This document shows, piece after piece, positions 11,926 through 55,786 of a stretch of 64,000 nt of DNA. Position 1 is the stretch's first letter; each line of letters begins with the position of its first letter. The notes beneath the pieces were generated by a model. That model searched no databases and was not told the origin of the DNA. It was given only the letters and a program-made list of their open reading frames with translations. The DNA comes from Pseudogymnoascus verrucosus (lineage: Eukaryota): the NCBI GenBank assembly GCA_001662655.1, contig KV460209.1; one strand, written 5' to 3'. The translations under genes and the position numbers were made by a program.

Positions 11926-12470
11926 GGCAAGCAGGTTGGGGGTGCTGGTGACTGTATCATGGATAAGTAATGTTCGAAAAACTGTGTCAGGTCGCGAAAG
12001 TGGTGTTATGATTCAACGAAGTTGTATTTAGTATAGCATCTTGTGTAAATAGGTTGGCAGGCGTCTGGGATGGTCGGCAATGAGCGGGCGTCCACATTTG
12101 GGGGGAAATATTTGTTAACTCTGAAGGCTCGGGATTATAGAGAGATGGTGGGCAATGGTTGGGGATTGGAGTATTATTATATTAGGGGGAACATAAACAT
12201 ATGTAGGTGAGGAACATATACGAGGTATTCACTTCACAACTTAATATATTTGACGGGGGGCACCTTCCGCAAACAATCACAACGAAACCTACCCACCAAC
12301 CCATATTTCAGAATTTACGTGCCAAACGACCTCGAGATACCTCCTCAGGTGATAATTATCGCCGACATTCGTTCCATGTTGCTCTACTTATACTACACCT
12401 TCCTTTTTGCCTCCTTTTTCGCATCAACCATACTTTGGTGCCACATTTCCACCGTCCGCCCCAGGACAAT

Positions 12471-13747
12471 ATGCGACCTCCCGGAGGCCCACAGGAAGAA
12501 TCGCAGGTACTGGCTCCAGTGAAGGGGCCTTATCCAGTGGCGCCAGTTACGGATTTTGCAAAGGAGGCTCCTGAATCATTCTCTCAGTCTTACGCGGGCC
12601 TGGATATCATTTCCTTCGATAACTTCGTGCCTCCGCGCCTCAAACACTTTGGCAGCATCGATGGCAAACTACGCCATAAGCCAGAGGGTGCTGGAGAGGG
12701 CCTGAGGATTTTCACCGACTTACCTATGCCAATACGAGAAGAGCCTATTGCGATTGAGACACCTTCAAAACGCCGTGCTAAGACCCTGAGAATAATTGAC
12801 ATTTGGGGCAAATCCCCTGAACCCCGAAACTCAAAACCCACGACACAAGATACCAACAAAGGAAACACAAGCAAATCCGGTTCCAAGGATCTCCGACTGA
12901 CTACCAGCTCCACGAATAGAGAAATGGGGCATGTGCAAGGAGAGTCTTCCTTTGAAAGTGGCAGCAGGCCTGATCTTACACGTTCTATGCTTTATAACTG
13001 GCACTTACTCCGGATGGACAATATACGAATACTGGATCCGCTCTGGGAAGGCTTTCGGGGTTCTGCTCATGATTACGAACTCCTCAAACTCCTGGCACAG
13101 ACCCATGAACATCAACGGTGGTGGCTGATTGTTGTTGACGGCTTCGCCTGCCCCCAGTGTGTTGATGAGCTCCGTCTCCAATGGATGCATCCAAGAGTAT
13201 GCAGATCTACCACACGAACCATTGATGATTAAAAGCTGACGTTCATTAATAGTCCCTAGGAAAGGCTATAAAGAGCTTGAAGTCTAGGTGTACGAGGCAT
13301 TCCCATTGTGATGGTGGCAGTTGCAAAGTCATATGCACTCACACACACCGTGATTGCAACAAGGTAACCAACAAAGCCGTTCCAGACAAAAACACTCTAA
13401 CACGATGAAAGGTCACCCAGTTCTTCTCCAAGCTAGGCCGAGAAAACTCAAATCGCATGCGCAACATCGTCTTGGAAACCCGAGACGACCTGCTCCCTGA
13501 TGCCGACGTCCTTGTTTCCGTTGCCCACAATGTCGGCCGCTACTTTCCTGACGTCCAGAATCTCGAGATCAATTTCCACTTTGGTAACAGGCACCTTGAC
13601 AGAGACGTATGGACTCGTATCCTATGCGCCTGCCAACGCCTGGAACTCTATCTGCCAAAAGGCCAGCACTTGCGCATCAGAGGGATTGAGAAGCATACGG
13701 AGATGCAGAATGACTGGACCAGGAAGGGTAGGAAGTGGCACGAATAA
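12471..13747 (+). CDS. Hypothetical protein, 3 exons (12471-13196, 13253-13363, 13412-13747), with a Cys/His-rich middle exon
   Basis: Two canonical introns (GTATGC..CTGAC..TAG; GTAACC..CTAAC..AAG) join ORFs 12207-13232 and 13457-13747 in frame. No family recognised; start codon uncertain. Confidence 0.6.
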
Positions 13748-14104
13748 GAAAATAGGAACTGGGGCATCAAATGGGAGTGACAAAGTTCAGAAATACATTA
13801 CTTGATATCCTACAAATCGAGAATATTCAGCATTATCATTTTGGTAGAAATGCATGGTGATGATTAATAATAACCTTGTTTGGGCATATAAGCATGACAG
13901 ACGCATTAGTAAATGTTCCTCGGCAGGACACGGGGATTGTGATTGGTGACGGATGATCGCAAATCGCTGACAGCCTCGCCTAGTCACGTCATACATTGTG
14001 TAAGGCTGTGGAATATGCGGGACACGGGATTGTCCTTATTAACCCCACCTTCGCTCCGCATTCACGTTCATAACAACGTTCTACAAGACATCACCTAGCC
14101 TTCC

Positions 14105-15423
14105 ATGCTACTTTCTAGAGGGAAGCTACTTGTAACTCCCAATATTACAACTACATCCAGATTGTTCAGTACTTCATCACCAAGCTTCACCATGGTACGT
14201 CATATTGCCCGCGGAGTTCCGAGTATTGTTTGGATGGCTGGAACTGAAAAACATGCAGGCAACAAAAATCTCCAATTGGGTTGACCCAAAGGATAAATCG
14301 GGAGAGTTCAAGCGTGGAGCGTCGGTTTTTCGCAATCATATCTCCAGAGAAGCAGGCGCCGAGTTTCCTGCCGAGAAGGGGCGCTACCACCTCTATGTGT
14401 CCTATGCTTGCCCTTGGGGTATGCACTCGCTCTTTGTCTTATGAATGAATCCGTTACTAACAAATGCCAGCGCATCGCACGCTGATCGTAAGGAAGTTGA
14501 AGGGCCTGGAGGACATCGTCCCATTTACCGCCGTACACTGGCACATGGGCGAAAACGGTAAGCCCTCGGGATGAGTTTCATAGAACCCCACACTGACATT
14601 ATCAGGTTGGCGATTTGCAACCGCTAAGGATAAGGATGCTCCTGGCGAGAACGTGGGGTCAGACCCCGTAGCAGGCCATGAGAAGTACACCCACCTCCGC
14701 CAGATCTACTTCCAGGTGGACCCCAACTATACCGGACGATTCACTGTGCCCACGCTCTACGACACTGTCCAGCACAAGATTGTGAGCAACGAGTCTGCGG
14801 ATATCATTCGCATGTTCTACAGCGAGTTCGATGATATTCTTCCCCAGAAGTATAAGGATGTAGTCCTTTTCCCTGAGAATCTCCAGGCCAAGATTGAAGA
14901 GGCGAATGGCTGGATATACGATCTCATCAATAACGGGGTTTACAAGTCTGGCTTTGCCACAACACAGGAGGCGTACGAGAAGAATGTCGTCGCTCTGTTT
15001 GAGGCGCTGAATCGGGTGGAAAAGCACCTCGAGAGCAGCCCAGGACCATACTACTGGGGCGATAAGGTCACCGAGGGCGATGTGAGACTGTACACCACCA
15101 TTGTGAGATTCGATTCAGTGTATGTCCAGCACTTCAAGACGAATCTTCGGGACATTAGAAGTGGGTACCCAGCCATCCACAAGTGGCTGAGGAACCTGTA
15201 CTGGAATGTGCCTGCTTTCGGAGAGACTACGCAGTTCGAGCATGTAAGTTAATACTTTGTTCTATGGACATACTGGCATAATACTGATACAATACAGATC
15301 AAGAGGCATTACACGAAGAGCCACCCGCAAATTAACCCATTCGGAATTACGCCTGTGGGACCAATCCCAAATATTCTGAAGGTGGATGAGGAGGTTACTG
15401 CGGTAAAGTCTGCTTCTAAATAA
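14105..15423 (+). CDS. ECM4: Omega/Xi-class glutathione S-transferase (glutathionyl-hydroquinone reductase, Ecm4 family); introns 14195-14258, 14419-14470, 14558-14605, 15244-15297
   Basis: GEFKR, RYHLYVSYACPWAHRTL active-site motif (spliced), FTVPTLYD, IVSNES, INNGVYKSGFA, IKRHYTKSHPQINPFGITPVGP. Two in-frame ATGs (14105, 14192). Confidence 0.9.
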
Positions 15424-15722
15424 TGGAGCAGGCTGTAAATAGTCAGAGAGTAATAATTTATTATTTAACTTATTCTAAATATGCTATGTGATGATATGAT
15501 TAATTTTTGTAGAAACGAATAAATTATACTATGAATTAAAAGTGTTATTCAATAAAACTAAAGAATTCAAATGGAAGGGAGTACTACAAGTATCACAGTC
15601 AGGGTGTCGAGGCATCATAATTAGAGAGGCTTCATTTATTCATAATCCATACAATTCCTGTTTGGAGGCTCATAACCTCCACTCCGTATCATACACCTTT
15701 GCCAGGACCAAGCACCCAAAAT

Positions 15723-16384
15723 CTACAATGTATGCTTGATCTTGATGTCTTGAAACCTCCTCAACCATGGTGTATCCGCATATTTCCTCTCGATCTGAAA
15801 CCATCTCGCAATGTATTCAGGGTCGTTCAACCTCCACTGATCATCGTGTTCTTCATCCCTGCTTGCTTCCCAGAAGCGCAGGAAGACTTGCTTCTCGTAT
15901 TTTTGTGGCACAATGTCTTCGAGTGCCATCACGTTGCCCTCTTCGTCGAATGGGAGGGTGAAGCTATGGATGTCAGAGTTTGTTCTGTGTTTGGTTCCAG
16001 TGGCCCCGTTGCTATATTGTTTTGGAAGGGAACCTGGGAAGAAAATAGGTTACTCACAGAATCATACCCAGGACGCCATCAAAGTTTGGCCTGATGTATT
16101 GGTGTATAGGAAGTTCAATATCCTTGGGCAACGGCTTCAACTTAATTCCACGTGGTATTGGCAGCCATTGTTCGCGGATGACACCTCCGATCTTGATAAT
16201 TTTTGCCATGCAGTAGTTGAGGATTTCATTCTGCTGCTGGGCATCAAGTGTGAGATTGATGATCTTGAGCTGTAAATGTAAATAATGGCCAAACAAATGT
16301 TTGGGAGCTGTAAATGCTTACTTCATAGTGATCCTCTTGTGCAATATTGATTGACTTGTGTTGCTGTATCTTTAAAGAAGGCAT
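15723..16384 (-). CDS. Small hypothetical protein, probably 3 exons (16384-16322, 16269-16058, 16011-15723)
   Basis: ATG CCT TCT..GAA|GTAAGC donor with a CAG acceptor into LKIINLTLDAQ; a second donor CT|GTGAGT and TAG acceptor join the 15723-15932 ORF in frame. No family recognised; the second intron lacks a clear branch site. Confidence 0.45.
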
Positions 16385-16513
16385 GTTGACACCCAATTAG
16401 ATACTGGGCCTTTGATTGGGAAGAGGCCATTGACAGTTCCTGGGTGAGTCTTTGATGGTGATAGGGTCTTTGATCTTGACCGATTCTCTGGTGCTGGCTG
16501 GAACTTTGGCCTT

Positions 16514-16608
16514 GCCAGAGTATTTGGAAGTACTGACAAGTTTCCAACGGCAATCTCAACAGCCAGGTATTTGGAAGTATTGACAGGTTGTCAACGGCAA
16601 TCACAACA
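16514..16608. repeat. Imperfect ~48-bp tandem duplication
   Basis: GCCAG(A)GTATTTGGAAGTAYTGACARGTT..CAACGGCAATCWCAACA occurs at 16514 and 16562. Confidence 0.8.
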
Positions 16609-16675
16609 AAACAATAGGAGGTGAAACCACGTGAGCTTACTCCCAACCAAGTAACGTAACTTCATCTTATTATTT

Positions 16676-18422
16676 TCAAAGCATATACACAAACTTTCTA
16701 CTTACGTCTCTCCTGGCATTTTCGCCAACGAGAGTGTCCTCCTCCTCCTCCTTGTCCACTTCTACATATTCCCCTCCATTTTGCTTCTCATTGTTTCTAT
16801 TCTTCCTCGAAAGATAGAATCGCAGTATAACTGCCAAAGCGGCAACCACTACCATTGCTCCTGCGCAACCAGCCATCCCACGTGTATAATACGGCGCATC
16901 AACATCAGGATACAATCTTGTCCCGACTAATGGTCCACACTGGCCCACAAGCTGCAACATAGCAAATCCAGCACCCTGTTTACTTTCCGACTCCTGATTA
17001 TTGATCGTCCAAGTTATAACAATCGTAATCACGCTGAAAAATCCAATCGCAGCTGGATATATAGCAGCATAGCGCCACCAAACCCCCAACCCAAATCTCT
17101 CCGCAAGAGCGAGCACGAGATACCCTGAACAGGAGAAGAGCGCATGGAAGATAATGAAGGTCGAACGTGACTGCACACGATCGGAGAGGTATGCTGTTAA
17201 AATCACGATGAAAAATGACATGAGATATGGAGGGGCCGAGAGCGCTTGCGACACAACGGAGGAGTGGCCCATAGATCGGATAATGATAGGTAAAAATACA
17301 GGCATCGATGAGAACGCCATGTTGGTGAAGAAGAACATGAAAGCAGTCAGATAGGCTTTGGGATCCAATATTGTCTCGAGGACCTCTCGCCATTTGAGTC
17401 CGCCCTTGGTCGCAGCACCTCCTTGGCGACGACGTAGGCGTAATCGGGCAACCTTTCTTTCCCTCGCAGTCAGGTACTTTGCTTTTGCCGGTCCGTCTGG
17501 GATAACATGCCAGGCGATGACAGACACGATGACACTTGGAAATCCTTCAACGAGGAATAACAGGCGCCATGGCGCAATAGGACCGTTTTCTCCGAGCTTA
17601 AGAATCGCCCATGCGAGGGCGCTGGCGAATGAGGTTGCCAGAGGGGCGGCGCTTATAAAAAGTCCGGTGCGCAAGGCCAGCTCTTCTTTCCTGTAAAAGA
17701 AGGACAAAAAGTATGGGATTCCAGTAAAGCCAGCTTCGCCAATCCCAAGGAGTAGTCGTAGTATTATGGATGTGACGAATGAAGTTGACAGAGCTTGAAG
17801 AGATGCGATAATTCCCCACGACATGACGATTACAGAGACGTATATGTGTGCAGGTATGATTTTCCAAAGCAAAGACATCCACTCGAACATGATATATGTG
17901 ATGTAAAACGACGTGAGGATCCATTCGTATTGATCCGAATGAAGATTCAAATCAACATCCATTCCTGCGATTCGAGCATTGCCAATATCTTTGGGTGTGT
18001 CAGCAGCTGTCGATACAATTGGGCACAGTATACGCACTTGATCTATCCAAAAAACTCAACATGTACAATAGTGCTACAAATAATACAAGCCTCTTGTCAA
18101 ACTTTCTGACCACTGCGCGCTCCTCGTCTGGTGTATACAATTGAAACGATTGTGTTGTCGAGGCGCTGCCTCGGCGGGGAAATGTATTGCTGCCATCGTC
18201 GCCAGTCCGAAGAGGTGCCTCAAAATCTGCCTCTTTATCTTGAGATTGGAGTTCTATGCTCTCGTGGCCATTGTAATCGTCGTCGAAGTCTGAATCCCCA
18301 GAGTCGGGTTCGGGTGTCAATCGATTCGCACGGGAACTGGAGCTGGAATCTGAGGGCACAATGTCACTTCGAGCCCCTGACTTATCGCCGACATGCGACG
18401 CCTGAGGGAGACTTGAGGCCAT
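16676..18422 (-). CDS. MFS transporter, anion:cation symporter (allantoate/nicotinate permease, Dal5/Tna1-like); intron 18037-17989
   Basis: ERAVVRKFDKRL...SFLDRS|NIGNARIAG after splicing, RLLLGIGEAG, PWRLLFLVEGFPS, and about 12 hydrophobic segments. Confidence 0.9.
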
Positions 18423-18776
18423 TCTGAGCCATCAAGATTGTTGAACTTCAAACAGCAGGAAAAATATATTCAATTCATAGTTTGTTCATTCCGTAGCCTC
18501 ACCACCATCGTGGCCCTGAACTGGGATGCGGTTGGTTCTAGCTATGACGGGTGCGGTGGAGACCCTTAAGGGTTGGCGTGGGGTACTTTTGCAAGGGTAT
18601 CACGATCCACAACGTAAGTGAGGCATGGGTTGGACCGCGAATAGATTTCACATAAGCTTCACATCCATATCAAATGAACTTTCAACTTCCAACTTTCAAC
18701 AGGAATACAGAACATTTTCACAGATCAAATTTATGGCAGAATGAATATATTTGATGAGCTATTTGAACTATCTAAA

Positions 18777-18913
18777 TTATGTAGGTCACTTGGGCGTAAA
18801 GGGCTTTTGGGTTTTTGGCAATGTTGGACCCTGTACCTGCACCGTGCGACAGTATGAATTTTGGCGTGAATGACAACTCCGACCGGGGCAGAACAAAGTT
18901 GTCATCCGTTGCC
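18777..18913 (-). ncRNA. Putative H/ACA-like two-hairpin small RNA, unit 3 (most diverged)
   Basis: Hairpin GGAUGACAACUUUG/CGGAGUUGUCAUUC, A-rich hinge (AAAAUUCA, not a canonical H box), second hairpin with internal loop, then CU-ACA-UAA. Similarity to the other units ends just after ACA. Confidence 0.5.
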
Positions 18914-18962
18914 TGTATGGCCGAAGAGGAAAGAAGGAAAGAACGATCCGGAAGAGGGGTGT

Positions 18963-18998
18963 TGGAAGTGGCATTTGAACTTTCAAAAGCCACCTCCA
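18963..18998 (-). other. Spacer stem-loop capped by AAGU tetraloop (candidate RNase III site)
   Basis: UGGAGGUGGC-U-UUUGA-AAGU-UCAAA-U-GCCACUUCCA; the G-U pair forms only on the minus strand. Confidence 0.55.
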
Positions 18999-18999
18999 T

Positions 19000-19142
19000 T
19001 CATGTAGGCCACCTGGGCATAAAGGGCTCTTGCGTATTTGGCAATGTCAGGCCCTTTACCCTGCACCGTGCGACAGTATGTGTTTTGGCGTGGATGCCAA
19101 CTCAACTGCAGATGGAAGCTGCAAGAGTTGGCACCCGTGGCC
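19000..19142 (-). ncRNA. Putative H/ACA-like two-hairpin small RNA, unit 2
   Basis: Hairpin GGGUGCCAACUC/GAGUUGGCAUCC, H-box-like AAAACA, hairpin GUCGC..UAAAGGGC/GCCCUUUA..GUGGC, then CU-ACA-UGA. Confidence 0.6.
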
Positions 19143-19211
19143 GTGAAGTGAAGTGAAGAAGAAGGAAGAAACGAGAAGGAAGAGAGGAAGAAAGATCAGG
19201 AAGGGGGGTGT

Positions 19212-19246
19212 TGGAAGTGGCATTTGAACTTTCAAAGCCACCTCCA
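19212..19246 (-). other. Spacer stem-loop capped by AAGU tetraloop (candidate RNase III site)
   Basis: UGGAGGUGGCUUUGA-AAGU-UCAAA-U-GCCACUUCCA; nearly identical to 18963-18998. Confidence 0.55.
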
Positions 19247-19247
19247 C

Positions 19248-19389
19248 TCATGTAGATCACTTGGGCGTGAAAGGCTCTTGCGTTTTTGGCAATTTCAGGC
19301 CCTTCACCTGCACCATGCGACAGTATTTATATTGGCGTGGATGCCAACTCAACTGCAGATGGAAGCTGCAGGAGTGGGCATCTGTGGCC
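19248..19389 (-). ncRNA. Putative H/ACA-like two-hairpin small RNA, unit 1
   Basis: Hairpin GAUGCC.ACUC..UGCAG/CUGCA..GAGU.GGCAUC, H-box-like AUAUAA, hairpin GUGAAGGGC/GCCUUUCAC, then CU-ACA-UGA. Confidence 0.6.
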
Positions 19390-19404
19390 TGAACGGTGAT
19401 ATGT

Positions 19405-19470
19405 GAAGAAAAAAGAAAGAAGAAGGAAGAAGGAAAAGGTCTCGGGGGTGGAGTTGGGGGGGGATTTATA
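19405..19470 (-). promoter_or_regulatory. TATA box plus pyrimidine (CT) tract upstream of the RNA array
   Basis: Minus-strand TATAAA at 19470-19465 followed by CCTTTTCCTTCTTCCTTCTTCTTTCTTTTTTCTTC, a typical fungal Pol II core-promoter arrangement; no credible CDS downstream. Confidence 0.5.
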
Positions 19471-19841
19471 TTCCTGGGTCTGCGACGCCAGATCACTCAA
19501 GCGCGCTATCACCAAATAAGCGCGACTCTCACGAGAGGACGCCATTGGCTAGATCAAGCTAGATCAAGGAGAAGCGAATCAAAGTTAACGCTTGTAGGCG
19601 GTGCAAACACGGCAAACGTTGGTCCAGTTCTGTAACTGGCCTGGAGGGGTGCAAACAGTGCAAATATCTGTCTAGTGCCGCACAGTCCTAAACCAGACGT
19701 GGAAGGTACGTTGTGTGGCCATATACATTGGAAGGATGATACTACAACTGTTGCTCTCTTTCTTCGTTGCCATAGGTCACCATAGACGTCCCCTGCTTGT
19801 GAGCTGCCTTTGTTGGAGCTATGTTTATTGCAGTCTATATA

Positions 19842-21842
19842 CTATATACCCCATATCTGATTCCATCGTCTACTATCACCATCCAACGGCCCATCCAACC
19901 TTCCAAACCTTGGAGGCGTTCTAGAGGTAGATTCTGGCAAGCAGACCCATTCTCGGACACAGCCAGGGATCTCCTCTCGAACGTGGCTAATGCACAAGAG
20001 GGCCTGCTCAGGACCTAATCCTCGAATAGCTACGTTGCCTGCCCGTGAGGCGTCGGATTCAATAACATCACGCGAGCCACCCTTCCACTGGAACGTTTTG
20101 GTTTCTCCATGGGCAAGGAATAACATGCATTTATCTCTCACGACTTCATCCATACCACCAAATGATTCATCCAAGATCACAAGATCTGGCTTCTTGACTA
20201 TGGCTCGTAGGAATAATGCAACACGCTGAGACGAGAACGGTAGATCGTTGAAGAGGCATTCACTAGCCCATGCGGTTGAATCAAGAGCTGGCTTTGAGGC
20301 ATCACTGGCAGCAGCACCTGGCCGCAACTCATGCTCAAACCATTTGAGGCAGGCTTCGACAGCCGCAACAGCGCCTTTATCCAACGTCGGGATTGCCATG
20401 AACGTCTCCGACCAAGCGTTCTCCAGTGTCTGCCTAAGTGTCAGAGTACGTGGGATATGGTGGTGTATCTCGGGTGAAGAGTGACCGATCCGTGCCTGAA
20501 TGTCAAAGATGGATATTCCAAGTTTGCCAGGCTCAGGGAGACGTGACCGCCCAAACAACTTCACAGGCTGCGAGTATGTCTGAGGGTGGTCGGAGCAAAT
20601 CAGAGAAAGAATAGTGGTCTTTCCACTCCCGTTCGCACCGATGATACCCCATCGCTGACCCCGCCTGACTTTCCAATAGAGACCTTTCTGGGGCTTGCCA
20701 TCCACGTCTTGTGTCCAGTTACCGAGGACAATTTTCGGCCCGTATGCCACGCGAACACCGTCCATGTCAACCAGAATTTCTCCTGTTTCCGCTTCCTTCG
20801 ATTCTTCCATGTCGTCTCCCCGAGTAGATGAAGGAGTTCCAGTTTCCTCTGGGGTGTCTGGCTCCACAATTCCTCGATCGGTGAGAGTCCGACCAATTTC
20901 ATGGAGGGACTGAATTGGGATGTTGACGGCGCTACCACTGTTTGCTTTCAGTTCGCTCAGGACCTCCTCCTTCGGTCCTTTGAAAGCTACTTCGCATTCC
21001 GGGCGTAGATACATAAGATGCGTAATCCAGTCCGGAATTGGATCTTGAGGTCTCAACGAAAGAATAAGCCTGGGATCATTGGCCTTCGCAAGTCCATGTA
21101 GCAATGGGCTCAAAGTCATCAGGGTTGGTGGATCAAGTCCCATGAGCGGCTCATCCAACAACAGAACTTCTGGTTTTCCAAGCAATGCCCTGGCAATCTT
21201 TGCTCTCCTAGTCTGTCCATTAGACAGGTTTGACACTGGCATATCGATAAGGTCTCCGAGTCTCAAATCCTCAATGACTCTTTTCAAAGATGCCTCGTTA
21301 ATGGACTTGCTTTTCTCTTCTTCTGAAGGATTCAGCTCCGTCCTGCCCTGGAGATAATTCAGGACGGTCCAGTCCGTGGCCTCCCGGTGAGCCTCATATC
21401 TCGCGCTCAGGTATGCCCCTCTGGTTCCCTGCCCCGACAAAACTCCTTGCTCGCCACCAAAGCCGACATATTGTATCGCTCTACTGGGTATGCGTAATTC
21501 ATGGTTCTTCTGATTTATCTCCTCGGAGTTAAGGTACGGATATGACCGAGCGGTAGGTGGAAGAGACAAATATAGTCCTCTCAAAATCTGTAGAAATGTG
21601 GTTTTTCCAGAAGATGATGGCCCCAATATGGCCCAGTAATGAGGATCTTCTGGGAATGAGGGTAATTCAAAATTTAAGTCCTTGAACAGTGCTGGATTGG
21701 CTTGTTTTGCAGCCAGGGAGGACGGATGATGACGGTAGAACGTGCCATTTTTAATTTGTATTATAGCCGGTTTAGAAGTCGCCAAGCTGTAGCTTCGTGA
21801 AGAGATCCTATGAAAAGGACCTTTTATCTTAATTAACCTCAT
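19842..21842 (-). CDS. Soluble dual-domain ABC ATPase without transmembrane domains (ModF / yeast YDR061W-like), probably mitochondrial
   Basis: GPSSSGKT, LSNGQ, LLLDEP; second domain GANGSGKT, VILDESF; Arg/Ser-rich N-terminus. Confidence 0.85.
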   Translation of the reverse strand: MRLIKIKGPFHRISSRSYSLATSKPAIIQIKNGTFYRHHPSSLAAKQANPALFKDLNFELPSFPEDPHYWAILGPSSSGKTTFLQILRGLYLSLPPTARSYPYLNSEEINQKNHELRIPSRAIQYVGFGGEQGVLSGQGTRGAYLSARYEAHREATDWTVLNYLQGRTELNPSEEEKSKSINEASLKRVIEDLRLGDLIDMPVSNLSNGQTRRAKIARALLGKPEVLLLDEPLMGLDPPTLMTLSPLLHGLAKANDPRLILSLRPQDPIPDWITHLMYLRPECEVAFKGPKEEVLSELKANSGSAVNIPIQSLHEIGRTLTDRGIVEPDTPEETGTPSSTRGDDMEESKEAETGEILVDMDGVRVAYGPKIVLGNWTQDVDGKPQKGLYWKVRRGQRWGIIGANGSGKTTILSLICSDHPQTYSQPVKLFGRSRLPEPGKLGISIFDIQARIGHSSPEIHHHIPRTLTLRQTLENAWSETFMAIPTLDKGAVAAVEACLKWFEHELRPGAAASDASKPALDSTAWASECLFNDLPFSSQRVALFLRAIVKKPDLVILDESFGGMDEVVRDKCMLFLAHGETKTFQWKGGSRDVIESDASRAGNVAIRGLGPEQALLCISHVREEIPGCVREWVCLPESTSRTPPRFGRLDGPLDGDSRRWNQIWGI

Positions 21843-22097
21843 GGCTCATAATTGTGAAAGCTCAATATCATCAGCGTATGACTCCGCATTGGGGGGAGCT
21901 CCGGGCCAGGGTCCACATATCGCTTAGCGCGTCTATGCGTTGCGTCGTCGTTCGCGCTTACACGTCCGCCTCGCAGCCTGGAGCTCCCATCAACCGACGC
22001 AACATCAAAACAGCTATCAATCCACGACACTATTTCTCTAATCCTAAACAACTCATAAGAACACGCCATCCGAAGTAATCTCATCACATCCGCAGCC

Positions 22098-22660
22098 ATG
22101 GTAAATACCCCCTCTCGACTCTCAATCCTACACTCCAAACTCTCTCACGTCACCAAGGGAGACCTCACCAAGACCTCACAACTAACTCTCATCAGTCCAT
22201 GCGCATCGCCCCCGCCTCCGGCCACTCCTCCCTCCACTCCCACCTCGGTGCCAAATCCGCCGGCGCCCCCTCCGCCCCAGGTCTCCACGACACCCTCCGC
22301 GTAGGCCTCGGCCCAACCACCCACGGCTCCTCCGAAACCCTCCAACTCGACTCCGCCCACCCTCTCGAATCGCGTCTCGCACAATGGACCGCAACGCAGG
22401 ACAGCCTGAAGCTTGAGGGTCTGCGGAGGACATTCGGCATGGCGGAGCCGATTCGTCGGGGCATGGAGCTCAAGATCACGAGAGATGGAGAGTGGCGCCC
22501 GTTGGTGCTGGGAGGTGGACAGCCGAGTGTTCATGAGGATATTTTGGCGGGCAGGGATACGGGGTGTACCTGGGAGGATGTTTTCCAGGGGACGGAGATG
22601 AGGGGGGTGCAGGGCTTCCATGAGGAGTTGGAGACGAAGGTTAGGATGGGACAGCAGTAG
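22098..22660 (+). CDS. UMP1: Proteasome maturation factor Ump1; ATG-only first exon, intron 22101-22195
   Basis: HPLESRL..W, LRRTFGMAEPIRRGMELKI, HEDILAGRD..TWEDVF; ATG|GTAAAT..CTAAC..CAG|TCC. Confidence 0.9.
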
Positions 22661-23251
22661 ATGGGTGGTGAAGTGGAGGTTGTACGAATAGCCTGGCGGA
22701 TAGATGGAGCTACATGGTATTTGCAGGAAGCATTGGCGATGGTTTTCTAGGACGGGATAGGAATGCAAGGAGTCACAAATACATTTCTAGTCACAAGAAG
22801 GAAGAGCGGATCACAATCAGGGACGAAGACCTGAGAAAATGACCCGCTTGTCTATCATATGGAACACGATCCATTGAATAATTCATTCGCTGTGCCTTTG
22901 TAACACCCCATGGACCTCTCTGCCCTCCCATACCTGTACAATTTCAGAACCAAATGAAAAACAGTTCCCCTGCCAGTGCTAAACGAAGTGACGGCGCCCT
23001 ATGATGCTGAAGAAAACAATCCTGCGGTGTCATATGTGTCCGCTAATCGGGAACCCGAACGCCTGTACAGCCCATCCATGTATCATCCCCAGCCCCGTGG
23101 TATAAAGAATCTGCCATTGCCTCCTCACATCCGCGTGGGGGCCAAAGCAGAACTAGGGAGAATGGAGAGGCAAAATCCTCCGTCGTATGGTGTCGTTATA
23201 TCGCATTAAATGCTCGCATGTCGGATTAAATTCCTGGTTCGTCGTAACGTC

Positions 23252-24186
23252 TCATAGAATGACACAGCGTCCACACCCAGGCGTTGGTTCCGGCCGTTCG
23301 TGCTGTCTGGCTTCGGCCCTCTTCCGCTCTGTCTCCTCCTCATCCACTATGTCCTGAGGACGTACCGTCATATGTACAACATTCGTCGCAGTCTCGTTGA
23401 ATCTGCACTCTATTGATGGGGTTAGTCTAAAATCCCGTCACCCGGTTGGGCTGGGATTGCTTCCATACCTTTCAGCGCCACATTGTCATTCAACAACCGT
23501 CCAAAATAAATCAAACGGATACTGCTCGGGCTCGTAGGCTTAGCATCCCATTCTTCCCTCCACTCCTTCAGGATCAGCTCTTTCAGCATAATTACGCTGA
23601 TGCTGTATGGGTCCTTCTTGCCGGTCTCCGTAACACCCGGGATGGTCATTTGCCGCTTCAGTAGATACCGCTCGTCTACTCTGTATCCATGTCGTGCCCC
23701 AGACGTAAGGAGAAGCATGATATTGCAGACCGGATTCGCCACATCCGTTGAAGGCGATACGGTGCTGGCCAGCGGTTGTCCCTCATCCGCCGCCGTCTCG
23801 CCCGTGTTTGAACCCAGAGACAATGGCGCCGAACTGCTGATGACCTCCTTGCTCTTCTCCTCGCCGTCAATGGCAGTAGAGTCCTCTGACGACTGCATCG
23901 CTTCCTGGGCCTCGCTCAAGGTGGTTGTTGGTGCTGGTTCTTGTGGCGCTACAGCGACTGGCGGCTGCGCTGGGGTCTCCTCCATCTCCCTGTTTACCAT
24001 GCTGGACATCGGAGGTATCGGTCCAAATGGCGTGGGGATGTTCTTCGTGATGTCTGTTGTGACACTGCTCGTGCTTCTGGTCAGGTCGTCCAGCTCGATA
24101 GTGGCATTTGGACGTTGCCCCAGTGGTCGGGGATCGGACCCAGTGTTGTCGGGGCCTGAGACTTGGCGAGGGTGAAGCGACTCCAT
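23252..24186 (-). CDS. Membrane-anchored ubiquitin-fold protein (UBL3/MUB family) with C-terminal CAAX; intron 23468-23410
   Basis: LKELILKEWREEW..PTSPSSIRLIYFGRLL; spliced last exon NVVHMTVRPQD...GCGRCVIL-stop. Confidence 0.85.
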
Positions 24187-25057
24187 TGGTGGGTGGCCCA
24201 CGTAGAGCGCTCTAATCGATTACTCCGTATGTGAGTGTAGGGGTTTGTACCAGAGCTACGATGAAGTATACACTTTAGTGTCCTGCGATATCGAATGAAG
24301 AGCTTCGTATCGTAAGAATATCTATAATATATGGTAAGGCGCGTACATGTACTTTACAGTAGCACAGCAATCTGGAGCGGGGATGTGTGTGTCAGTGAGG
24401 TAGATGGAAGTAGTGAAGAGTACAAGAGTTCCAGTACACTGACACGCCTGAAACCTTGTACCTCTGTTGGCAATGACGGAGCGAGATAAACATGGCCAAA
24501 CGTCACAAATAGAGACACATACCCTCTGTGTACTCATACAAACAATCAAATCTACGCATACAGTCTATGGTTTCAAATCTGCAGCAATCAAAGCTATACG
24601 TCCCTAATGAATCCAGTTGCATCCTATCTTGCTCACCGCGATAAGCCTCTGCCTTGCTTTCACATGGGGCTGCATATATACTCTCAGATCACAGGTTTAT
24701 TGCGTGCCAACTTGTTTTCCAAGACACTCCCTGATTGGCTTTCAGAGTTATCTTGGTAAGTATAATGTGGTTTGGCTGGCTGGCTGGCGATTTCGGCATT
24801 TGGGTTCTTGCCACCGGCCAACTCGGAAGCGTATGGATTACTACACAAGCTTTCTGGCTTACGGGATATTTTCAGGGTCTTCGAATGAGATATGCAAGAC
24901 ATGGTCGCGTGTTGAAAAAAACTGCAATCTTCTGATCTGAGTCTATCTACTTGACTAATAACGTAGCATTTTCATTTCCTCGTGTATGTTCACGTAAACC
25001 TCGACCACCCACGACAATCTTCTTCAGCGTCGATCCATGGGAGGCATTCATGCCACC

Positions 25058-28000
25058 CTAGTTGCCCATCTTCATCATGATATAAGGAACTTCAACATCC
25101 TCCCCGCTCTCATCATCAGCGCAGATCTCAAAGATGACGTTCTTCTGGTGCTCAGGAACCGCCTTCTTCGATATCTGGGCCACAAGGTCACTGAGCTTCA
25201 GCTCATAGCGGTCCTTCAGCTTCGCAGGTGGGAAGAAGCTAGCGTACAGCAAGCTAACCCCGGAGCTCAGCATTGTGATATCAAGACCCTTCGCCTTAAA
25301 CATATCAATGAGCTCCCTGAGAGTGATATTGTCAACCTCAAACCTGTCCCACAGCTTGTCGACAGTGACGTCTCCGTTAGGCCCCTTGTAAGAACCCTTC
25401 GGGCTCGCAATTGGCTCGCTGAAACCGAAAAACGGCAATGCGAGGTTCACAAAGCCGTTCTTATACTGCTCAATGTCGTCCTTGCCGTCGAGGACCTTGT
25501 AGAGTTCAAGAATGACCAAGCCTGTTACCAGCGCAGTAGTTGTTGCAATGGCCGGAATAATCTTGCCAGCAATGAACTTTGTCTTGTGGCGGTCTGCAGG
25601 AGCGATCTTGTAGTTGTCAGCACGTAGGTTACTCGCAGCCGTGATGAAATCAATGTGGTAATTGGTGTCGTCGTCCTTCTCAAATTCAACAGGATACAAC
25701 TTAAATCCTGCCAAACTGCTTGGTGGTGGCAGGGTCTTCATGATCTCCTGCAATTCGCTACTATCATCAAATGATGAGTTTGCGGCCGGCGCATTTGGGT
25801 CCTATAAGGGTCAGTACTGAGATTTAGAGTAGCTTCAGAGGTTATGGCTACTTACGGGTTCGCTGTCGTCTGCCTGGATCTTGACGGCAGGGTTTGGTGA
25901 GAAGTCTGGGATAATCATGTTATCCAAGACCTTTTGGATAACCTGACCATCCGCATCTTTAGTGTTGATTCCGTAATTGAATGCGTGCAAATTAGCTCCA
26001 GCAATTACGAATCGGAGGTGCTCTTCGTTGTTTGGGTCGAATTTCAAAGGAGTTGGAGCACGCTTTGGTCCAGACCAAAATGGCACTCCACTGGATGAGT
26101 TTGAGTCCTTCGGGAAATTGTACAGAAGCTGCTGGATAGCGTTGTTGTACTGGTTTTCAAATTGAAGGCGCGCCCAGATGACGCAGTCCTCGAAGCTGAG
26201 GGGCTTATCAGTAACCAAGTAATCTCTAATGGTCTCCAAGGTTGCCTTCTCGTTGCCACCTTGCTTAAGAGTTGTATCGATATAGTTTGGCTGGCTGAGG
26301 TAGAGGTTGACCGTTTCGGCTGGCTTGACAAAGTACGATTCGAATAACTCGCGGCCCCACGCAATCGTGTGTTCGATTTTGTTTGGGAAGCTCTTGAGAG
26401 TGCACATCGGGAACGACTGCTCGGGCGGATCTTGCGAGCTCGAATAAGATTCCGACAAATGTGGCAGAATAACTTGTGTGTTCCCCTTAGTGCCCAGGGT
26501 ACCGCTCTCAAGCAGAGGCTTTCGGAAGAAGACGCAACGTCTATCGACGTATGTACGACCATCTACGTTGTCGAGAGCATTTGTGACGCCGTCGAGAGAT
26601 TCCCAGAACTCCTCGTTGAAGATGTGCTCGGTATCTTGGCCCACTCTGTCTCGCATGGTGACAATGTGGCCCTCTAGTGCTGGGTTCATGGCGACAACCG
26701 CTGCGGCAGCACTGTCGCTCTTCATCTTGCCAACATCCTTTGGTCGGAACAGGAACTGTCGGTTAAGATTGCTCTTCTCAATAGAATCCATGTCCGTCAC
26801 GCTTATTTTGCCCTTTGGCCCAGTTGCCAATCCAATCATTGCCCAGTTCTTGAGCATCTCGCATCCAATTGCACCAGCACCAACCAGGAACTCGTTGGTG
26901 TTTGCCAACTTCTCTTGGAAGTCCTTTCCGAACACAGCAATCTGGCCATCGTACCGGGAGTTTGTCGGTTTGCACAGCTCTTCCGAACGCTTGAAATTAG
27001 TGGGTAAAGACTCGAGGGAGTCGAAATAGAGCCACTGAACGATCGGGTGGAATTTGCCGGAGACGGCCTTTAGAACTTCCTGGGCCGCAAGGCCACCAAA
27101 GAAAGCAGCCATGGGGTTAAGGTCACCTTGAGCCTGGTAAGATAATTCCCTGATAAGCTTTTCATCGATTTCCACCGACAATTTCTCCCTTTCCACAAAC
27201 AACTTTGCGGAGCCAACTACAACTGCTGCGTCATCATCATTGTGTGGCCTTGGGAAGTGCCCATGGCCCTCAGCAAATGCGTGAAGAGCCTGGAATCCGA
27301 CGTGAAGCTGCTCAGGTCGGTCCATCTTTGCGTAGTCGGAAATGAGAAACTCTGGGGTTTTCAGGCATTCCGAAAATGGCTTGAAGTCGATAAACTTGGG
27401 CATTTTGACCTGCGTGTATATCCCCCCTGCCTTGTATTGACCTATACCAGAAACGTCGCCGATCGAGAAGGTGTAAGGCCCCTTAACCGTGATTTTACGG
27501 GGGTCTGAATTGTTGAGCGCTTCCATTCCTTGCAATTCCGTGAAGGTAACGTAATCGCCATCTTCTAGGCCATGCCTAGTCTCGTCGAGGGCAGAAACGA
27601 GGCCCTCTTCGTTGATACTAGCGACAATTCCGGACACTGGGGTTTCGCCACTTGTGTCGAGGACTGTGAATTGCTTGCCGAAATCGCAAAAGATAGATCC
27701 GAATAGGCCAAAGGTATCGGCAACGACGAGATAAATGCCCTTTTGGTGGCAGTAGTCACCAATAACTATTTGATCCTTGATCGGGGTGTCCGTGAGAACA
27801 ATCACTTGGAATTGGTCAAGTACGGCGAGATTTCCTGTCAAACTGGGCTCGTCAAGTACCGACACTGGAGTGTATGCGTTGAGCTCTGCCACGCGAGGGG
27901 CAGTAACGAGACCCCTCTCTTTGCCTACATCTTCGGCGTGAATGAAGAATTGCGAGGACAAGTCGGATATGGCTGCTGGTGTGCGGTCGTAGAGTGTAAG

Positions 28001-28195
28001 GCTCTTGACACCAGCAAGAGCAATGTTCTTGGCAACTTCGACTCCCAGACCCTTCAATCCCACGATGAGGACGTTCGACGCAGACATACGCTTCATAGCT
28101 TCATGTCCGAGGACATACAGCTGCCGGCTGTAGAGCGACTCGTCGATATCATTGTTGGCGGCTGAGGGGCCATCGACCTGCATTTTGGTCGCCAT
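25058..28195 (-). CDS. UBA1: Ubiquitin-activating enzyme E1; intron 25855-25802 (upstream AUG-less exon described in findings)
   Basis: [33 protein letters not shown], catalytic [28 protein letters not shown]. Confidence 0.97.
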
Positions 28196-29194
28196 ATCTG
28201 TTCCTGATTTTAGGCTGCTCTACAAATAACGATTAGTGACTGAATCTCATCTAGAAGCAAGTCGTCATGGACAACGAAAGCTGTCTTTCGCCACCAGCAT
28301 AGGTAGAGCTCGGCCATTTGCTTACCGTCAGGGTTCGTTTGACAAGTCGGGGTTCAGCCTCAGAGGAAGCCTTGCGTTTGCCCTGCTGGGTCACACCTTC
28401 GGTGTCTGTGATGGATGGAATTTTGAAGGTCTAGCCAGTGGCCGAGACAGCTGGGGATATGGTTTCGATCCGGATGTAATGAACACTTTGCCCAAGGTAA
28501 GTTTCGTAATACCCCACCTCCGTCTCAGAGTGACGTCTCGGAATGTATGACGACGGGGTACAATGTTCAAATCGGACGACAGATATTATATGGGAAAAGG
28601 AATCAAAGGCGGCAGTTGTGGCTCGCAAGAAGGAAGAAGTTTGAATATCCTAGAAGTTGTACTTCAAAAGGTGTGTGGTGATGTAAGTTGCGGTACAGCT
28701 GGGAGGTACTCTTTGTCTTGACTCAGGTAGGTGTGCAGGGAAGGTGCTGGAGCTGTGCTTACATAGAGGGATGGATGGATGTCCCCGCCTTTGCTGCCTT
28801 ACGGGACAAGAGGGGTTGCCTTATGCGCGTCAACCTGGTGATTATCGATAAGCGACGATAAGGAATCCCGCACCGCGTTCGGATGACGCGACGAACATTA
28901 TATGAGAGAGAGCACAACCTGTGACCAACTGACTTTTCCTGGGATCAATGGCAATGTGTTTATGAGGATATCAACGTAGTTCAAATCTGGAGGTTCTGAC
29001 CTTCTGTGCCCTTAATATTACGACAACTAGCCCGGCAGAAGATGTGGTGTTGACCAATGTGTCGGTTCGAATTGCTGGGATCCACCATCTTGCTATTTCA
29101 CGCCATCTTTGGGAGGAAAGGACAGACTTATAACTCTAAGTCGTAAGCCAATTCAAATCATTAACGTGTGCATTTTTAACGGCTCTTATAGACC

Positions 29195-53865: not shown

Positions 53866-54625
53866 GATAGCGGTTTGCACGAGGATTGGGGGATGTGAAC
53901 AGACGACCGTGACAGTAACCTTTGACGTGCTGCGGGCGTGGAGGGGAAGTGGGCAAAAAAAGACGGGGAAGCTCCGAGATATATTTGGGGGTTCAGTTCA
54001 GTTCAGTAGTTTCCGCCGGTCGGTCTTCGATTCTCGTCTCCGTGGTTGTTAGTGGCCCGGGGTGGTTCCAGGGTACATACAGTACGGAAGCTCAACGGAA
54101 TGTTAATGCCGACTATCAGGACACGACTGAGCGCGAGTCAGTGGGGAAGTATTGCGAGTGCGGAAGCAAGGCCGGCTAGCAAAGTTACATATCCGGGCTT
54201 CCTTACTTTAAACCGAGATTGATAGTTTGAGGGGGAAACTCTAGAAATATAATATGTAGAATAATTAGAGTAGAGTAGAATAGAGTACGGGATGTCTCCG
54301 TAGACGATTAATAATGAGACAGTTGACGGCTCAGTCAGCTGCGGCTGTTCAGCTTTCCCTTGCCCTTTCTCATCTCATCTCACACACATAAAAATACTAA
54401 TAGAATCCTAGCCGCACATTCTCACACATCCACCGACTATTTCTGGTTATGCTGTACGTGAGACCGGTTTCAATTCTACTGTACTGACGACTGTCACTGG
54501 CCTGTTGTACGGCAGAGAAGAGGACAGATTACTCATTCCGTGCAGACGCGGAGACCGCGCAGGCACTATTTACCTACAATAGGTATGAGTGGTTATCCTC
54601 GAGCTTCCATGGGAATCTTATAGGG

Positions 54626-54653
54626 GGCTGGCTGGCTGGCTGGCTGGCTGGCT
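54626..54653. repeat. (GGCT)7 microsatellite
   Basis: Seven consecutive GGCT units. Confidence 0.9.
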
Positions 54654-55786
54654 GGGCATTTTCGGTAGAAATATAATAAATTCACGGCATGTGAAATTAT
54701 TAGCATGTAACTGTGTAGTGTAACAACTGGAGCACAGCCGGTCTTTCGACCCGAGTACGAGCATAACAAAAGACGTCAGCACACACAGAATTGAGTCCAC
54801 GGTACTTCAATAAGGCATTTAAAGGAATACTCCTCCTATCCTCTACAACGGACTCCGTACTACCAACCCAAACCCACTGAGCACGCACACAAACTCCGCG
54901 GCCCGAAGAGAAATGAGACCCATACTCCATACTCCATACCATCCATACTACCTACTATGGATGGTAGTGCGCTCTATACATACATCTTTAATGTTGTTAG
55001 ACTATATAATACAAGGTCTATCAGCACATCAGCACACCTGGTTATCAGATCCTCATATATTGTGCTCCCCCTCCCACCTGTTCATAGTCAATTAATCGAG
55101 GGAGCAACACTACTGCACATAATTAAACCCTAATTTCAACGTGGCATGTAGAAGAAACTAACTCTACGAAGTACTTCCCCTAACATCACTAACATCACAG
55201 AGACCATGGGGTCACGTGCTCTCCCGCTCGTTCCCCCGGGTTTATCCACTCCCGCCTGTCCCCAGACACCAACCGCATCAATTCTGCCCCAGGCGCGTCT
55301 CCAGTAGGGCCCAATTGGGGCGAGTCGAAACCCAACCCCCAGTAAAAATGTTGTCGGGCAACCGTAGTAGCAGTATAGCCGCTATCGCCGGGCGGATGTC
55401 CTATCTCAGAGATCAATATAACCTCAACTCCTATAAAAAATTGCTCTATCCCTATCCAAAATTACAAAGTGATGCGTGTCGTCGCATTGCTTAGGCACTA
55501 ATAATGACCTCGGTAGACATGCAAGAATGAGGTCAGATCTGACCAACAAGGGACAATATGTGTGAGTGCTATATCCCCTCCAATCTGTTTACTCTAAATT
55601 CCAAGCCCCGCCACACCAGTCCGTCCCGGGTCACGAGAAGCCGCTGGCCCTTTGCCCAATCCAGTCGCGGAAGTGATGCGCTGCCACACGAGATACGCGT
55701 AGGCGGCTTTTTGTCCGGCGTTTAGCTGAGGGCCAATGTTGAAGGAGTTGCACGGGCGATCTGCTGTTTGTTCGCTGTAGAAAGCA

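Follow-up and report, generated by a model that had tools for sequence, protein, structure and literature searches.

A 1.4-kb gap between two open reading frames, one encoding an ABC-ATPase (19842-21845) and the other an MFS transporter (16676-18055, extending to 18431), holds the array described here; the flanks were assigned from ORFs and Pfam domains, and coordinates refer to the whole 64-kb stretch of DNA that was analysed, which we call the window. Within 12000-28219, the domains found by Pfam in the ORFs are GST C-terminal, MFS, ABC-ATPase (two nucleotide-binding domains), ubiquitin-like (Rad60-SLD_2) and UBA1. The UBA1 fragment in the window (794 aa) is 96-97% identical to proteins of Pseudogymnoascus strains; with the proteins of other Leotiomycetes its identity is about 83%. 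These identities place the window in or near Pseudogymnoascus and the host among the filamentous ascomycetes, in agreement with an earlier, sequence-only reading of this DNA, which had taken it to be from a filamentous fungus. On the minus strand of the gap we observe one TATA box and, behind it, a tandem of three H/ACA-like units that measure about 140 nt each, and the order along that strand is CCAAT, TATAAAT, leader, unit 1, stem 1, spacer 1, unit 2, stem 2, spacer 2, unit 3 and finally A/T-rich sequence.

The units, all on the minus strand, were delimited by their folds and by a consensus structure, with alignment as additional evidence for the third. Unit 1 (19248..19389) comprises a hairpin, a hinge with ATATAA, a second hairpin and an ACA (19253-19251) followed by TGA; unit 2 (19000..19142) has the hinge AAAACA and an ACA at 19005-19003, likewise followed by TGA; and unit 3 (18777..18914; ACA at 18782-18780) is the most diverged copy, with 75-78% identity to units 1 and 2. 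All three are predicted to adopt the same hairpin-hinge-hairpin-tail fold (z = -3.67, -3.82 and -1.74 for units 1, 2 and 3), unit 1 folding at -53 kcal/mol, and RNAalifold finds 39 consensus pairs for the three copies, with compensatory changes in 3. A 17-nt core that is invariant among the units has exactly 3 matches in the 64-kb window, against a mean of 0.21 expected by chance.

Box H/ACA snoRNAs carry in their hinge an H box with the consensus ANANNA, and their ACA is placed three nucleotides before the 3' end, while the top of the pocket lies 14-16 nt upstream of the ACA. The hinges of units 1 (ATATAA) and 2 (AAAACA) fit ANANNA, and the motif is absent from unit 3. An ACA is present in 3/3 units, whose 3' ends are predicted ones, and the 13 nt between it and the predicted upper stem of the 3' hairpin appear close to the distance that the pocket rule gives. 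All three units retain the two pocket strands, AYGGUGCAGG and GCCCAR, with variation only at one Y and one R. Judged by architecture alone, the units are probably H/ACA-like snoRNAs. In unit 3 the apex of the 5' hairpin is rebuilt and the apical pair of the 3' hairpin is broken, with both guide strands and the ACA retained; this unit may be a decaying paralogue.

Rfam gave no match to the units at E <= 1 in 15000-23000 and none at gathering score across the whole window. The sole Rfam match at E <= 10 in 18760-19400, mir-3192 on stem 1, was discarded as a chance hit, since its score of 16.8 bits falls short of the gathering score of 80. The guide GGUGCAGG and the other guide and loop motifs (four in all) have no match in the Neurospora crassa supplements of PMC2780460, where line wrapping could hide one, and inspection by eye of the 20 N. 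crassa H/ACA sequences from the same source gave no convincing homologue of the units. A metagenome scan with a 20-nt invariant core of the unit returned 2 loci, and over the 1,501 nt inspected at each of them both are unrelated-looking coding DNA that shares only the pattern. According to the accessible part of 'The fungal snoRNAome', a fungal snoRNA family is as a rule represented by exactly one sequence in each organism, and a three-copy tandem array is therefore unusual.

Directly behind units 1 and 2, on the same strand, stand two hairpins capped by AAGU: stem 1, of 35 nt, at 19212..19246 and stem 2, of 36 nt, at 18963..18998, each of which emerges from the individual folds, the scan of the window, the alignment and the fold of the putative precursor. 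Stem 1 has a 5' arm of 15 nt, its loop (AAGT in the DNA) at 19231-19228 and a 3' arm of 16 nt with one bulged U, and in stem 2 an extra U in the 5' arm makes of this bulge a U.U mismatch. Both stems contain 15 base pairs, one of them G.U, and in both copies the AAGU loop is closed by A-U, so that the nearly identical 15-bp AAGU stems reported after units 1 and 2 by the sequence-only reading are indeed present. The same reading had the stems start 1-2 nt after the ACA-NNN end of the unit, and the interval from ACA+3 to the first stem base turns out to be exactly one nucleotide in both copies.

The minimum free energies of the two stems are -21.3 and -22.8 kcal/mol (stems 1 and 2; z = -3.96 and -4.20), values equalled by 0/200 and 2/200 shuffled sequences, respectively. 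When the putative precursor of 741 nt is folded as a whole, both stems stay local, with a pair probability of about 0.95. A 40-nt sliding fold of the whole window finds 5 loci per strand at or below -21 kcal/mol, and the two stems make up 2/5 of those on the minus strand. In the same scan the stems fold at -21.3 and -22.2 kcal/mol on the sense strand versus -17.3 and -17.9 kcal/mol on the antisense strand, a bias caused by the G.U pair. A stronger fold on the minus strand is what an RNA element would be expected to show if this is the strand that is transcribed.

Stems 1 and 2 are identical in 35/36 columns, the single difference being an indel at the bulge that is neutral for the structure, whereas the bodies of units 1 and 2 match in 124/143 columns and the pyrimidine spacers in 43/69. 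If the stems varied at the rate of the unit bodies, one difference or none in 36 columns would have a binomial probability of 0.038. The alignment therefore confirms that the stem is better conserved than the units and that it is followed on its 3' side by a variable pyrimidine tract, both of which had been claimed before. The two stems are copies from one duplication and constitute one evolutionary observation; because they share this origin, they provide neither independent replication nor covariation.

After unit 3 the alignment reveals a decayed copy of the stem (18745..18776, minus strand), in which the 5' arm is short by about 11 nt and the 3' arm is mutated, and which has no stable fold (-3.8 kcal/mol, z = -0.64). 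The remnants that had been noted after the last unit, TAGATAGTTCAAAT at 18774-18761 and TGAAAGTTCA at 18684-18675, are both recovered, and neither folds (z = -0.64 and -0.24). The second of these belongs to a 14-nt tandem on the minus strand (18675..18700; z = -0.24, no fold) made up of two copies of the apex motif TTGAAAGTT without a complementary arm, one of which, at 18699-18691, is a further copy beyond the remnants named earlier. These tandem copies (18677-18699) lie about 80-100 nt past unit 3, and the pair could be what is left of a fourth hairpin, or else a DNA motif ahead of the MFS gene.

Upstream of the cluster, and again on the minus strand, a CCAAT motif (19544..19548) can be read, which presumably belongs to the promoter, and TATAAAT (19464..19470), about 75 nt upstream of unit 1, is the sole TATA-like element of the array. 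It is followed by a C/T-rich leader (19390..19463), delimited by alignment. Segment alignment places pyrimidine spacer 1 (69 nt) at 19143..19211 and pyrimidine spacer 2 (48 nt) at 18915..18962, both on the minus strand, and the leader aligns with spacer 1 in 56/88 columns. In a three-way alignment TATAAAT stands opposite GTTCAAAT, with which the 3' arm of the stems begins; a TATA box is thus found at unit 1 only, and units 2 and 3 have GTTCAAAT instead. The gaps between the units measure about 85-105 nt. The 5' splice motif GTRNGT has 0 matches in 19470-18700, where a lone CTRAC falls inside unit 2, and we rejected the idea that introns host the units on the grounds that the array contains no 5' splice consensus. 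Taken together, the single TATA box, the gaps of 85-105 nt and the absence of GTRNGT favour one unspliced polycistronic precursor. Such an H/ACA array would be atypical for the group, because in N. crassa, as described in the part of PMC2780460 available to us, 16/20 H/ACA snoRNA genes are intergenic and mostly independent, and the snoRNA clusters are hosted in introns.

We lean towards reading the stems as RNase III excision signals that separate the units of a polycistronic precursor, although with no great confidence. In Saccharomyces cerevisiae, Rnt1p recognises the tetraloop classes NGNN and AAGU/AHNN (PMC4334505) and makes its cuts at distances of 14 and 16 nt from the loop (PMC1868780), according to the portions of these papers at hand; the AAGU loop of both copies belongs to a class recognised by Rnt1p, as those portions define it. 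Counted from the loop by the 14/16-nt rule in the accessible text of PMC1868780, the predicted Rnt1-type cuts fall at 19246|19245 and 19212|19211 in stem 1, and at 18997|18996 and 18963|18962 in stem 2. They come to lie at the base of the stem because the arms, with 15 or 16 nt on the 5' side and 16 nt on the 3' side, reach the cut distances of 14 nt and 16 nt, respectively. Cuts at the stem base would excise each hairpin almost exactly, leaving the upstream unit to end at ACA+5 or ACA+6 and the downstream fragment to begin with the pyrimidine spacer.

The length of the helix is the main argument that the loop may guide the cut. In Schizosaccharomyces pombe, Pac1 is described as requiring 20 nt or more of helix, and the natural stems predicted for it measure 23-32 nt (PMC8421224, partial text); with 15 bp, the stems would make a poor generic dsRNA substrate of the Pac1 type, which we disfavour accordingly. 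A ruler anchored at the loop would fit a 15-bp stem better than a generic dsRNA enzyme. The identity of the loop adds little to this argument, because AAGU is seen in one evolutionary event, in two duplicated copies, and because the recognised classes take in much of tetraloop space. Indeed, NGNN and AAGU/AHNN together cover a large share of all possible tetraloops. A dependence of processing on the AAGU loop is less likely than RNase III excision itself, and we regard it as doubtful. As regards the enzyme, an intact Rnt1 is reported, in the section of PMC10275271 available, for Aspergillus fumigatus, a filamentous ascomycete. A search seeded with E. coli rnc and aimed at longer proteins gave no identifiable fungal Rnt1 among the 120 matches listed, which are mostly long bacterial RNase III and RNase III-Era fusions. 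Even within budding yeasts, Rnt1p-like substrate rules, dependence on the loop included, are not universal, as the Candida clade illustrates (PMC3579876, partial text).

From the structure, position, conservation, strand bias and length of the stems, all of which are observed, we infer a transcript, an enzyme, its cuts and the trimming of the products, as follows. One RNA polymerase II promoter (CCAAT and TATAAAT) would drive a precursor of about 650-700 nt with three paralogous H/ACA-like snoRNAs, and the nascent RNA right after units 1 and 2 would fold into the AAGU-capped stem of 15 bp. A nuclear RNase III of class 2, an orthologue of Rnt1 or Pac1, would then cut both strands at the base of the stem and so excise the hairpin. 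The upstream unit would be left with its ACA plus about 5-6 nt, which 3'-exonucleases would trim to the snoRNP boundary, and the downstream fragment would receive a 5'-monophosphate end from which a 5'-3' exonuclease could degrade the unstructured pyrimidine spacer up to the next snoRNP. For the last unit no separator would be required, and its stem has decayed. The core of this proposal, processing at the stems by RNase III, had been put forward by the sequence-only reading; it is in accord with the data at every point where the sequence can be checked (loop, arm length, placement, conservation, stability on the sense strand and decay after the last unit), and as a whole it is partly supported; the RNase III signal is a prediction from one locus.

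Other explanations can be offered for the same features. Each unit may be its own transcription unit, starting from the C/T-rich tract ahead of it, with the stem serving as the 3'-end or termination signal of the unit upstream; even so, the stem could act through RNase III cleavage followed by torpedo termination, similar to what the accessible text describes for Pac1 at the snRNA genes and some snoRNA genes of S. pombe. There, stable hairpins lie directly downstream of the snRNA, U3 and snU32 genes, where Pac1 promotes termination (PMC8421224, in part), and the mostly independent H/ACA snoRNA genes of N. crassa (PMC2780460, in part) also suit this arrangement. In the array itself, a C/T tract precedes every unit and resembles the one behind the TATA box. 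In filamentous fungi, C/T tracts can act as core promoters, and the tract ahead of each unit could be such a promoter. Moreover, the 3' arm of the stems has its aligned counterpart in the TATA region of unit 1. The repeat monomer thus once carried promoter sequence, and the stems could therefore be 3'-end or termination signals of the individual units. Against independent transcription, GTTCAAAT takes the place of any TATA-like element at units 2 and 3, the roughly 85-105 nt between units leave little space to terminate and re-initiate, and if each unit needed a terminator, the decayed stem behind unit 3 would be difficult to account for. We consider independent units unlikely.

Still less likely, in our estimate, is a stem without any function in RNA, either a by-product of duplication kept alike by gene conversion or an A/T-rich palindromic apex that serves as a protein-binding motif in the DNA. 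Both stems are duplicates, as such an origin would have it, and TTGAAAGTT occurs 4 times in the window, always inside 18677-19235 and in 2 copies without a stem, which hints at a possible role of the motif at the level of DNA, unless the stemless copies are just further remnants. The apex also contains GAAnnTTC, which we take to be two-thirds of a heat-shock-element-like repeat; the complete three-unit heat-shock element has 0 matches in the window, however, and we dropped the idea. Nor would a stem without RNA function be expected to form an island of identity amid more diverged flanks, to have its sole indel in a structure-neutral place, to contain a G.U pair that favours the transcribed strand, or to start one nucleotide past ACA+3 in both copies. 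Finally, an agent other than RNase III might cut or bind the stem (a Dicer-like or other endonuclease, or a protein that blocks exonucleases), or the stem might be kept as a third hairpin of the mature RNA. An ACA triplet does stand directly 3' of the stem as well (CCA-ACA-CCC), but this ACA abuts the helix with no spacing and aligns to ATA in the remnant behind unit 3, and the stems have no internal loop able to serve as a guide pocket. A helix of 15 bp is short for Dicer products, and a stable hairpin one nucleotide beyond the mature 3' end would presumably hinder 3' trimming unless it were removed. Although U14 is reported to be released in both yeasts by redundant, unidentified endonucleases (PMC12508059, in the part available), we judge this last group of explanations to be very improbable.

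Turning back to RNase III excision, the closest known system is that of the Rnt1p signals of S. cerevisiae, with its polycistronic snoRNA precursors and the AAGU/A1-loop hairpin of snR48. As in the sections of PMC4334505 and PMC1868780 at our disposal, a short stem carries a tetraloop of a recognised class (NGNN or AAGU) with cuts expected at 14/16 nt, and its location in the spacer of a snoRNA precursor would leave exonucleases to finish the ends (PMC12508059, partial text). The differences are that Rnt1p comes from a budding yeast and the host here is a Leotiomycete, and that the stem sits right against the upstream unit's 3' end and does not exceed the ruler distance in length. Polycistronic snoRNA clusters in yeast are mostly of the C/D kind, and they join different snoRNAs, whereas the array holds three copies of one H/ACA-like RNA.

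Outside budding yeast, the nearest parallel is provided by the Pac1 hairpins of S. pombe, downstream of the snRNA, U3 and snU32 genes and in the mamRNA-snoU14 precursor. They too lie directly downstream of a mature small-RNA unit, where they serve 3'-end formation, termination or release (accessible parts of PMC8421224 and PMC12508059). In contrast to substrates of at least 20 nt, with predicted stems of 23-32 nt and tolerated apical variation, as the former describes them, the stems here are of 15 bp and keep their loop exactly. The UHG-like clusters of N. crassa, as set out in the part of PMC2780460 available, resemble the array in yielding several snoRNAs from one promoter in a filamentous ascomycete; those snoRNAs, however, are of the C/D type, one per intron and released by splicing, while the H/ACA-like units here are flanked by no 5' splice consensus. 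Our literature search found no report of RNase III tetraloop signals or snoRNA processing of this sort in filamentous fungi or Pseudogymnoascus. The kind of signal is already known, and the stems are a predicted example of it in a filamentous fungus.

The factors that mature non-intronic snoRNAs of shared precursors outside budding yeast "remain largely unknown", in the words of the accessible text of PMC12508059 (2025). It is conceivable, though we would not expect it, that an RNase III specificity in the form of a helical ruler anchored at the loop, in which a loop of the AAGU/A1 type is read and the cut made at a distance of 14/16 nt, is not confined to budding yeasts and occurs in a Leotiomycete, with a substrate that has evolved to the exact length of the ruler. 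If this is true, removing one 35-nt hairpin generates the 3' end of an H/ACA snoRNA together with the 5' entry site of its downstream neighbour, and a specificity of the Rnt1p type would be older than the divergence of Saccharomycotina and Pezizomycotina. With three units and two near-identical stems of about 35 nt, whose length equals the Rnt1p ruler and lies below the Pac1 minimum, the locus is a compact test case that would allow loop-guided and generic dsRNA recognition to be told apart in filamentous ascomycetes, as well as the existence of polycistronic H/ACA arrays in this group to be tested. Should it work as proposed, the module of stem and spacer could release several small RNAs per transcript in filamentous fungi.

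Several minor features surround the array or recur elsewhere in the window. Upstream of CCAAT, at 19547-19566 on the minus strand, TTGATCTAGC occurs twice as a perfect tandem 10-mer, and a 29-nt repeat at 19600-19676 on the same strand has two copies containing TGTTTGCACC (family D6, 76% identity); the tandem 10-mer and the 29-nt repeats are candidate promoter elements of the array or, alternatively, candidate 3' signals of the ABC gene. In the fold scan, a (GGCT)n-type microsatellite run at 54619-54658 shows up as an apparent hairpin, and a hairpin of about 15 pairs with an AGGG cap, a tetraloop of the AGNN type, lies on the plus strand at 2647-2686 (-19.8 kcal/mol) and may be due to chance.
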